Assembly: GCA_948437735.1 (NCBI GenBank)
Contig: CAOJKD010000019.1
Location: 1-58,449, forward strand
Reading direction: 5' to 3'
Length of the DNA stretch: 58,449 nucleotides
Origin: an uncultured Lachnospiraceae bacterium
GTDB lineage: Bacteria; Bacillota; Clostridia; Lachnospirales; Lachnospiraceae
Below are positions 57,483-58,449 of this stretch, piece by piece (position 1 is the first letter of the stretch; each line of letters starts with the position of its first letter). The notes beneath the pieces are model-generated. The model made no database searches, was not told the origin of the DNA, and was given only the letters and a program-made list of their open reading frames with translations. A program made the translations under genes and the position numbers.

Positions 57483-57733
57483 AGGTTCACCTCCTTGTAC
57501 AATCAAATGTTTTTAATTGAAAATTTCAGATTTTTCAACTCTTCCAGTCTCCTTATGTTTTAAAATACAGCTCAACAAAATAAAAAGCGAAAAAAATCAG
57601 GAAAACAAAAATCAATGAAAAAATAATTTTTAAAAGATTTACTGTGAAAAGCTTTTCACTTTAATAAGCACCGCTTCGGGGATAAAGGTTACACTTTTTA
57701 AGAAAATTATACGATAGATTTGGGCAAAAAAAA

Positions 57734-57762
57734 GGTAATGAAGTAGATACCTTCATTACATA
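57734..57762. repeat. Copy 1 of a 30-bp palindromic hairpin element; on the minus strand it is followed by a T8 run (terminator-like)
   Basis: GGTAATGAAG-tagatac-CTTCATTACA is preceded on + by A9. Read on minus it is a hairpin followed by a U-tract, so it is a likely terminator insulating the ECF sigma operon. Confidence 0.5.
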
Positions 57763-58047
57763 CCAATAAATTTACTAAAATAAAATAAAAAAATACAAAA
57801 AGTTCTTTTAATGGTATCCTGATTGTATCACTATATTACAATCTTGTCAATGGATTTGATAAATTTCACAAATATTTACATAGAAATAATAAATGATATA
57901 TTTATTTTCAATAATTTAATAGTATTTAATTATAATAAAGATAAAAATAATATTTTTGATGTGAAACTGCCGAATTTCCTTGCAGACAGCGAATTTCTTG
58001 GACTTTTGATATATTCTTAAATGATTTTTCCAGTATTGTTTCTTTTT

Positions 58048-58071
58048 ATTCGCCGTCAGATTCGCCGTCAA
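58048..58071. repeat. Tandem 12-mer site 1: ATTCGCCGTCAG ATTCGCCGTCAA followed by an A-tract
   Basis: Two abutting copies of the 12-mer are followed by AAAAT. Confidence 0.55.
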
Positions 58072-58206
58072 AAATACAACAAATTCGTTTTATTTCAGAA
58101 AAGCCTACTGTTATTATAAATCAAAGAAACTTTTTTTAAATAATTGATATCTTTTAAAAGTGCATAGTCTTTTAAGTTCTAATTTATTCCATTGATTTGC
58201 CGTCAA

Positions 58207-58230
58207 ATTCGCCGTCAAAAAATAAAAAAG
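58207..58230. repeat. Tandem 12-mer site 2: ATTTGCCGTCAA ATTCGCCGTCAA followed by an A-tract
   Basis: The same tandem arrangement recurs 159 bp downstream of site 1, again followed by AAAAAAT. Confidence 0.55.
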
Positions 58231-58270
58231 TCCTTGTGATATAAGGGATTTCAACAGGTATGTAATGAAG

Positions 58271-58300
58271 GTATCTACTTCATTACATGTTTGAAAGGAA
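58271..58300. repeat. Copy 2 (inverted) of the 30-bp hairpin element
   Basis: TATGTAATGAAG-gtatcta-CTTCATTACAT is the exact reverse complement, loop included, of the element at 57734-57762. Confidence 0.5.
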
Positions 58301-58319
58301 GATCAATATGGGAATAGAA

Positions 58320-58449
58320 CTGTTTGAACATAATAAAACAGCATACAATGCAGCTATTTCCATGCTGAATACCACAGGGAAAGCAGCAATTATCCATCCA
58401 ACCGGAACCGGAAAATCGTTTGTTGCATTGAAACTTTGCGAGGATTATC
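58320..58449 (+). CDS. N-terminus of a superfamily-2 (DEAD/DEAH or type III restriction Res-like) helicase; continues beyond the window
   Basis: ATG 58320 lies 6 nt after AGGAAG. It reads MGIELFEHNKTAYNAAISMLNTTGKAAIIHPTGTGKSFVALKL, so the Walker A PTGTGKS falls at residues ~31-37 as in SF2 helicase N-termini. Confidence 0.5.
   Translation, partial: MFEHNKTAYNAAISMLNTTGKAAIIHPTGTGKSFVALKLCEDY

Follow-up and report, generated by a model that had tools for sequence, protein, structure and literature searches.

A probable invertible promoter switch in front of a helicase-led polysaccharide operon in an uncultured Lachnospiraceae bacterium

A 58,449-nucleotide stretch of DNA from an uncultured Lachnospiraceae bacterium (GenBank assembly GCA_948437735.1, contig CAOJKD010000019.1; the whole stretch is called the window below) carries near its end an AT-rich island, which lies between a gene for an extracytoplasmic function (ECF)-type sigma factor and the ATG (58308) of a superfamily 2 (SF2) helicase gene, and which probably holds an invertible promoter switch. 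The G+C content of the island is 22-31%, compared with 36-50% in the neighbouring genes, and only short unconserved open reading frames (ORFs) are present in it, in agreement with the non-coding character noted in the original prediction, which was made from the letters of the sequence. A 31-nt sequence, GGTAATGAAGTAGATACCTTCATTACATACC, is located at 57734-57764, and its reverse complement occupies 58257-58287 with 30 of 31 nt identical. The inverted repeat (IR) is exact over 57735-57764 and 58257-58286 (30/30) with 492 nt in between, while 0 such repeats were expected according to 100 shuffles, and each copy consists of a 9-bp stem and a 7-nt loop. The two hairpins had been proposed to be one sequence in opposite orientations instead of two unrelated terminators, which was borne out by the 30/30 reverse complement, loop included; the second copy had been placed at 58271-58300, 14 nt too far to the right. 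No further copy of the repeat was found in the window within 3 mismatches.

Each copy of the repeat contains a site in which 8-bp inverted arms, GTAATGAA and TTCATTAC, flank an asymmetric 9-nt centre, and the left site (IR-a) and the right site (IR-b) are mutually inverted (Table 1). The fixed left flank ends with AAAAAAAAG and the fixed right flank starts with ATGTTTG, without target-site duplication, and the fixed sequence after IR-b, which would be the partner in a flipped right junction, is ATGTTTGAAAGG. The sole strong promoter match within the repeat-bounded segment is on the minus strand, with TTGACA at 57850-57845, a 17-nt spacer with TG, and TACAAT at 57827-57822; it lies 62 nt from the left site and points leftward at IR-a. 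On the same strand, the IR-a hairpin followed by U8 (RNA fold of -11 kcal/mol, z = -3.0) is the sole terminator-like site of the scan, whereas IR-b as RNA would form a hairpin of -16.7 kcal/mol in the 5' untranslated region (UTR), without a U tract. No conserved promoter faces the helicase gene in the present orientation; when the segment is inverted in silico, the promoter moves to 58171-58199 on the plus strand, 108 nt upstream of the helicase ATG. The consensus scan also suggested a plus-strand promoter (57875-57902), which was rejected, as it has no conservation in paralogues.

As well, the segment possesses two sites of tandem 12-mers, each made of one exact copy of ATTCGCCGTCAA and one copy with 1 mismatch (4 matches observed against 0.63 expected; 4 were reached in no shuffle). 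The original prediction had located the first of these abutting pairs correctly, while the second lies at 58195-58218 and not at 58207-58230, and the pairs are accordingly 147 bp apart instead of 159 bp.

Table 1. Features of the putative switch and of its immediate surroundings (positions in the window; "." for features without a strand)
Feature	Position	Strand	Description
Anti-sigma partner gene	55738-56925		Neighbour of the ECF-type sigma factor gene; outside the switch
ECF-type sigma factor gene	56922-57482	-	Outside the switch; lies beyond the terminator, downstream of the promoter in its OFF orientation
T8 tract (A8 on the plus strand)	57726-57733	-	Fixed left flank; with the IR-a hairpin resembles an intrinsic terminator for leftward transcripts (terminator scan)
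IR-a, 25-bp recombination-type site	57735-57759	.	GTAATGAA / GTAGATACC / TTCATTAC; identical to IR-b as far as 57764; homologous site is an exact inversion boundary (L057 vs L060)
Putative invertible interior, 502 bp	57760-58261	.	Non-coding (short unconserved ORFs only), 22-31% G+C; homologous interiors found in both orientations
Leader of embedded promoter	57765-57821	-	Predicted: short terminated RNA here, 5' UTR if flipped; ends conserved in the alignment
Sigma-70-type promoter TTGACA-17-(TG)-TACAAT	57822-57850	-	Predicted by consensus scan; 11/12 with extended -10
12-mer site 1	58048-58071	+	ATTCGCCGTCAG + ATTCGCCGTCAA; invariant in 10 aligned modules
Conserved block ATAGTCTTTTAAGTTCTAATTTATTCCATTG	58164-58194	+	Directly upstream of 12-mer site 2 (alignment of 10 modules)
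12-mer site 2	58195-58218	+	ATTTGCCGTCAA + ATTCGCCGTCAA; ends 44 bp from IR-b
IR-b, 25-bp site	58262-58286	.	GTAATGAA / GGTATCTAC / TTCATTAC; reverse complement of IR-a; identity starts from 58257
Helicase ribosome-binding region GAAAGGAAG	58293-58301	+	From sequence
SF2 helicase gene, start	58308-58449	+	ATG 21 nt after the right repeat; truncated by the window end

The arrangement is not confined to the window. When representative genomes were scanned for the tandem 12-mer, 10 modules were identified in the Lachnospiraceae metagenome-assembled genome (MAG) CAMUAR01 (L015, L016, two in L017, L019, L020, L025, L029, L033, and L035; here and below, L-numbers are retrieved contigs and P-numbers are helicase proteins), and more were found in other Lachnospiraceae MAGs; the L019 locus is orthologous to that of the window. 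Nine of the ten CAMUAR01 modules, the L012 module (the same locus as L035, in another sample), and the window share a common order, namely A-rich tract, left repeat, minus-strand promoter, 12-mer sites 1 and 2, right repeat, ribosome-binding site (RBS), and helicase ATG, and the modules end 15-25 nt (rarely ~150 nt) before the RBS of the paralogous gene. The tenth, a partial copy in L017, precedes a WbsX glycosyltransferase gene and not a helicase gene. In this copy (L017 1-262 / 333-1559), the 12-mers and the right repeat stand before the WbsX-family gene, just upstream of a complete module with its helicase.

In an alignment of 10 paralogous modules, no variation is seen in the repeat arms or in either 12-mer site, and little or none in the promoter block (-35, -10, and flanking bases), while conservation is poor over the remaining interior. 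Most of these modules have an A-rich tract, usually A7-A8, ahead of IR-a, and in 9 of 14 modules the -10 lies 60-62 nt from IR-a. The 12-mers are the most conserved interior element besides the promoter and are common to two different repeat families. The second family, CGTAGAGT-GTGAT-ACTCTACG, possesses the same 12-mers and a TTGACA promoter (L013 3623-4066, L032, and L030 from MAG CANQOK01). The ORF downstream of second-family modules starts with MWYVLYCPNQKETEVIRSCRRRL and resembles by eye the N-terminus of an RfaH/NusG-like antiterminator.

The repeat centres behave differently from the arms. The arms GTAATGAA and TTCATTAC are almost constant over 16 modules, among which 15 distinct centres were counted. 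The centre, which is 7 nt long, or 9 with the flanking pair, is non-palindromic in 16/16 modules, giving each site a polarity, and the paired sites are always head to head within a module. Between the two sites of a pair the centres match at 9/9 positions in 15 of 16 modules and at 8/9 in one, compared with a mean of 5.0/9 between modules. At the window locus, the centre varies by a single base among closely related strains, being TAGATAC in the window and TGGATAC in L019 and L011, with the change present in both copies. An exact scan of the 25-mer hairpin against GTDB representative genomes gave 0 matches, because the centre is locus- and strain-specific (the representative MAG carries TGGATAC). 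Furthermore, the arms were found only as pairs bracketing a module and IR-b is without a U tract, which is not the behaviour of dispersed terminator hairpins; together with the lack of a further copy in the window, this speaks against the possibility, raised in the original prediction, of an ordinary genome-wide element similar to repetitive extragenic palindromes.

Direct evidence for inversion comes from a homologous module at the P0032 helicase locus, which was recovered in contigs from five samples. The promoter points away from the helicase gene in L057, L058, and L059. In L060, the flanks are identical to those of L057-L059 (1999/1999 and 5178/5178 positions), while the interior is the exact reverse complement (371/371), and L061 has the same flipped right junction as L060; at this locus, TTGACA-17-TACAAT faces the helicase gene in L060 and L061 only. 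The boundaries of the inversion are the 25-bp sites GTAATGAAG-TACGTTA-CTTCATTAC. The proposal that the region is a substrate for site-specific recombination with conserved, putatively protein-binding repeats is supported by the inversion of a homologous module exactly at the same sites. Both orientations are also encountered elsewhere: the promoter faces the helicase gene in all ~10 contigs of the P0042 locus (e.g., L040), and the second repeat family is found in either orientation with respect to its flanks (L030 is opposite to L032). Within the P0042 contigs, L046 (1241-1557) and L040 (2489-2942) have the same helicase P0042 and an ON-facing promoter, with different left contexts, lengths of 317 and 454 bp, respectively, and repeat centres differing at 2/9 positions; this difference may be the product of recombination between modules.

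At the window locus itself, one contig bears on the flipped state. The last 60 nt of L063 (GCA_948584295.1, CAPBHV010000290.1) follow the right repeat and are the exact reverse complement of window 57675-57734, an order of interior right end, repeat, and flank that exists only as a junction of the flipped state. The 60-nt overhang suggests that the assembler k-mer was longer than the 30-nt repeat, which, if so, would require real reads. Contig breaks were also considered as a trace of inversion and were rejected, since they fall in sequence that recurs in paralogous modules and in the helicase genes. Position 58449, where the window stops, is within the helicase N-terminus, Logan contigs break at ~57864, P0042 contigs break at the promoter, and L042-L049 start in one of these regions; both the promoter block and the helicase N-termini are repeated among paralogous loci.

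Taken together, window 57735-58286 is interpreted as an invertible promoter switch (inverton), which would phase-vary the helicase-led polysaccharide operon and which is in the OFF state here; we assign this reading a probability of roughly 85%. Under the proposed mechanism, a site-specific recombinase would flip the 502-bp interior between IR-a and IR-b. In the OFF state, the promoter would fire leftward, an RNA of ~90 nt would end at the left-site hairpin and T8, the operon would be silent, and the terminator would shield the neighbouring sigma-factor operon. In the ON state, the promoter, then 108 nt before the helicase ATG, would drive transcription across the right site, where a U tract is lacking, and on into the operon, giving a leader of ~100 nt with the right-site hairpin, followed by the helicase and polysaccharide genes. 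Since the arms are identical and the centres mostly differ, a single enzyme could switch the loci independently of one another, and recombination between them would be limited. As a genome would carry at least 10 modules, most of them may be OFF in most cells, which fits the excess of assemblies in the promoter-away state.

Several observations weigh against this interpretation. Ten assemblies spanning or reaching the left junction of the window locus (the window, L001/L062, L002, L003-L006, L010, L019, and L064) are all in the OFF orientation, and ~17 of ~20 distinct modules were seen in the promoter-away state. L063 is a fold-back contig and possibly an assembler artefact at the 30-nt inverted repeat. 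The promoter and the terminator are consensus matches only, and a T-rich run also follows the right site in some modules, so that the terminator logic is not uniform. The centres are not strictly unique per genome, as L015 and L035 (the L012 locus), both from CAMUAR01, share the centre GTGAGTACC. In addition, Pfam annotation of 30 window ORFs revealed no gene for a recombinase, integrase, or mobile element across the 58 kb of the window, and a phmmer search with XerD-like and Hin queries against all ORFs of the window and L001-L039 returned only a truncated XerD-like ORF in L020, leaving no convincing recombinase in the window and the retrieved loci of this IR family that the search covered. 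A scan of Joint Genome Institute (JGI) metagenomes for the promoter-towards-helicase pattern gave 0 matches, a weak negative, as the control pattern found only 4 modules there.

Some of these points would suit a fixed regulatory region, not flipping now or ever, in which the hairpins are terminators or insulators and the 12-mers are operators of a plus-strand helicase promoter. The single orientation of the ten assemblies, the terminator-like IR-a hairpin with its T8, and the location of 12-mers just upstream of a possible extended -10 (TGaTATAAG, 58237-58245) are all consistent with it. Yet this candidate -10 is missing in several paralogous modules, IR-b lacks a U tract, both repeats are intact, identical at 30/30, and co-varied between strains, and a homologous module flips exactly at these sites. 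The L063 junction also speaks against this reading, and we consider a fixed region improbable. An RNA-level device, in which a locus-specific hairpin shared by the short leftward RNA and the mRNA leader is bound by a locus-specific factor, perhaps the helicase with its HA repeats, as a decoy or for autoregulation, is held to be highly improbable as the sole explanation. The minus strand of IR-a and the plus strand of IR-b do specify an identical hairpin RNA, loop included, the loops are locus-specific, and every locus has its own paralogous helicase. However, DNA inversion was observed exactly at these sites, invariant palindromic arms with free but matched centres are explained less economically in this way than by recombinase sites, and the promoter-away state has no evident promoter for an mRNA leader. 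Such a device could still operate as an extra layer on inversion.

The original prediction suggested that the region might mark an attachment site or the edge of an integrated element or defence island, and that the 12-mers look like integrase arm sites or iterons. Repeats and conserved short direct repeats are indeed located beside a large SF2 helicase gene, and the G+C content drops from ~53200 onward. On the other side, the repeats are inverted, not direct, the 58-kb window contains no integrase, replication, or mobility gene, and no presence/absence polymorphism is seen, as all related contigs carry the same locus with the same flanks. Polysaccharide genes follow downstream, matches to defence models reflect a generic motor, and the module occurs at no fewer than ten chromosomal loci before the same type of gene (apart from the L017 copy before WbsX). 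The chance of such a boundary is accordingly very slight, and replication iterons are without any support. Finally, a miniature inverted-repeat transposable element (MITE) or foldback element spread to many sites would account for a multi-copy, AT-rich, non-coding unit of ~0.4-0.6 kb with terminal inverted repeats. This reading is barely credible, since the copies vary in the centre yet keep the arms, unlike transposon ends, no target-site duplication is present, the constant position before the RBS of a paralogous gene indicates that the module was duplicated with its loci, and the inversion is conservative and exact.

For the enzyme that would act on the switch, a tyrosine recombinase encoded outside the window is most likely by analogy. 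The sites have the form of tyrosine-recombinase core sites, with inverted arms round an asymmetric overlap and partner sites sharing the overlap sequence; the constant palindromic arms with free, pairwise-identical asymmetric centres point to a lox/FRT-type design. As well, in the region 1348-2501 of L053, a tyrosine recombinase gene (303 aa) lies directly upstream of another helicase-led polysaccharide locus, where 14-nt inverted repeats (2278-2291 / 2453-2466) of a different family bracket a TTGACA-17-TATAAT promoter in an analogous, shorter switch. In agreement with this assignment, inverton group 139 of Clostridia has been statistically linked to tyrosine recombinases in a published survey (PMC11892184). 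The XerD-like ORF of L020 (6220-6972, 250 aa), which adjoins a spoIIM-like gene and lies ~300 bp upstream of a module, is a poor candidate for the invertase, as it has no C-terminal catalytic region, and is probably a housekeeping or decayed gene.

The role of the 12-mers can be approached from their spacing. In 10 of 14 modules, 43-45 bp separate 12-mer site 2 from the right site (53 bp in 1 module and 57 bp in 3), while the interval between the 12-mers and the promoter ranges from 58 to 211 bp among modules. A constrained distance to the right site combined with a variable distance to the promoter favours an accessory role in recombination over that of a classical operator. Judging from sequence and spacing, the 12-mers may thus be accessory sites, arm-type-like or architectural, for the invertase or a partner protein, an assignment to which we give somewhat less than even odds; the arm-type sites named in the original prediction are possible in this sense. 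In more distant modules, the 12-mers have drifted to ATTGTAGTCAAA-like repeats. Readings of the 12-mers as ECF-type, PhoB-type, or sigma-70 promoters were tried by eye and yielded no convincing or conserved -10/-35 partner.

The SF2-type gene was correctly expected just after the second hairpin. Its product has the N-terminus MGIELFEHNKTAYNAAISMLNTTGKAAIIHPTGTGKSF, beginning MGIELFEHNK and running to the motif IIHPTGTGKSF, and its full length in L003 is 1154 aa, with Pfam ResIII and Helicase_C domains and many HA repeats. Relatives of this helicase number in the thousands, and those with a source name are from Lachnospiraceae, Clostridiales, or Eubacteriales assemblies. Contigs with the same sigma factor that run past the window end carry the helicase gene, then genes for a polyprenyl-phosphate sugar transferase (Bac_transf) and an NAD-dependent epimerase, and in the paralogous loci examined the helicase is followed by Bac_transf, DegT aminotransferase, epimerase, and glycosyltransferase genes. 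PADLOC and NCBIfam searches on the helicase gave only generic SF2-motor matches, the NCBIfam scores being far below the family cut-offs. The view that the helicase opens a restriction, defence, or mobile-element module is not supported by these results.

Elsewhere, the 58-kb window is ordinary chromosomal DNA from a spore-forming Firmicute, with spoVA, gerA, sugar ABC transporter genes, and genes for GH35, GH30, CTP synthase, FtsH, UvrC, DnaE, and PFK, as well as a BlaI/BlaR-like pair and the ECF sigma/anti-sigma pair. Before the island, the G+C content falls from ~45-50% to 30-37% over 53150-57500, where the BlaI/BlaR1-like pair (53595-55454) and the sigma/anti-sigma genes are located; this block may have been acquired and is present in all orthologous contigs. 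A perfect 16-nt palindrome, GTGAAAAGCTTTTCAC, was correctly recognised in the original prediction one base off its position, 57644-57659. It is located outside the module, only in the fixed left flank, is absent from the module family, and, lying upstream of the ECF sigma/anti-sigma operon, may be a candidate operator. In an Rfam 15 search, the only hit was a chance snoRNA match (E = 0.95; 18 bits, where the gathering score is 43). At the other end of the window, an 872-aa protein encoded at 1497-4115 on the plus strand matches Pfam MVP_shoulder, the shoulder of the major vault protein (6.6e-15), next to an RtcB ligase gene (4139-5356). The public record L008 (ERZ14499311 NODE_19222) ends near the sigma gene in the Illumina TruSeq adapter AGATCGGAAGAGCACACGTCTGAACTCCAGTCAC, an assembly artefact.

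Among published surveys, the one that used PhaseFinderDC in the hCom2 community describes groups 139 and 125 of invertons, both dominated by Clostridia (PMC11892184). The present element resembles these groups in being an intergenic inverton in gut Clostridia; the examples given there are ~230-260 bp with IRs of 13-25 nt, compared with a 502-bp interior here, a comparison that concerns lengths and not IR sequences. The literature search returned no description of this arrangement of IR, 12-mers, and helicase, a statement made without the IR tables of PMC11892184, so that earlier read-based detection is possible.

Phase-variable capsules are central to the evasion of phages and immunity by gut Bacteroides, while little comparable knowledge exists for Lachnospiraceae, a dominant gut family. 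If the present interpretation is true, Lachnospiraceae would have a Bacteroides-like repertoire of at least 10 switchable surface polysaccharides built from unrelated parts. The arms GTAATGAA-N9-TTCATTAC, the 12-mer ATTCGCCGTCAR, and the promoter block provide handles for scoring ON and OFF states in metagenomes and for a recombinase search. The locus-specific centres would be a natural example of heterospecific recombination sites, and the HA-repeat helicase, universally the first gene, suggests a still unstudied step of regulation.

In the Cre/loxP and FLP/FRT systems, inverted arms surround an asymmetric spacer that both partners must share, and spacer variants such as lox511 and lox2272 do not cross-react. 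Similar to lox and FRT sites, the sites described here have two inverted arms and a polar asymmetric spacer, and sites in inverted orientation lead to inversion. Unlike them, the arms are 8-9 bp instead of 13 bp, the centre is 7-9 nt instead of the 8 of lox, and extra conserved 12-mers are present. By analogy with the spacer variants, the different centres would prevent cross-recombination between loci.

Among Firmicutes, the tyrosine recombinase RecV of Clostridioides difficile flips the cwpV, flgB, and cmrRST switches, and cwpV is OFF via a terminator downstream of its promoter. The system resembles the present one in that a single unlinked recombinase, presumably also a tyrosine enzyme here, acts on several IR-flanked switches; it differs in that the cwpV and flgB promoters are outside the segment, the IRs are of 21 bp without the palindromic-site design, other genes are targeted, and no 12-mers are present. 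In Escherichia coli, fimS is a 314-bp invertible promoter element acted on by the tyrosine recombinases FimB and FimE, and sites for IHF and Lrp inside it set the switching bias. The promoter within the invertible element and the internal sites, which in fimS serve the accessory proteins IHF and Lrp, are shared with the element described here, whereas fimS has 9-bp IRs, recombinases encoded beside the switch, and a single locus.

The capsule loci of Bacteroides fragilis and B. thetaiotaomicron are controlled by invertible promoters that depend on the serine recombinase Mpi, and their first genes are UpxY, which is NusG-like, and UpxZ. As in Bacteroides, many polysaccharide loci would be present per genome, each behind a promoter segment that is flanked by IRs and measures a few hundred bp, with IRs shared family-wide, the recombinase not encoded at each locus, and a paralogous, regulatory-looking first gene. 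Work on the invertible capsule promoters of Bacteroides is cited in PMC11602134 (refs 16-26). Neither the IR consensus, Mpi, nor UpxY/UpxZ of Mpi-type invertons of Bacteroidales was found here: the host is a member of Lachnospiraceae (Bacillota), the IR sequence is unrelated to the Bacteroidales consensus, and the place of UpxY as first gene is taken by an SF2 helicase carrying HA repeats. The palindromic sites with locus-specific centres, the TTGACA/TATAAT-type promoter, the internal tandem 12-mers, and the OFF-side terminator are further differences from Bacteroides, and the site design suggests a tyrosine enzyme instead of the serine recombinase Mpi. On these grounds, a bolder reading can be put forward, which is tentative and which we consider rather doubtful: one recombinase might run at least 10 "orthogonal lox sites" per genome, whose locus-specific centres would stop the switches from recombining with one another, with OFF-biasing accessory 12-mers and the helicase as a locus regulator analogous to UpxY, and the system would then be an independently evolved Firmicute counterpart of capsule switching in Bacteroides.

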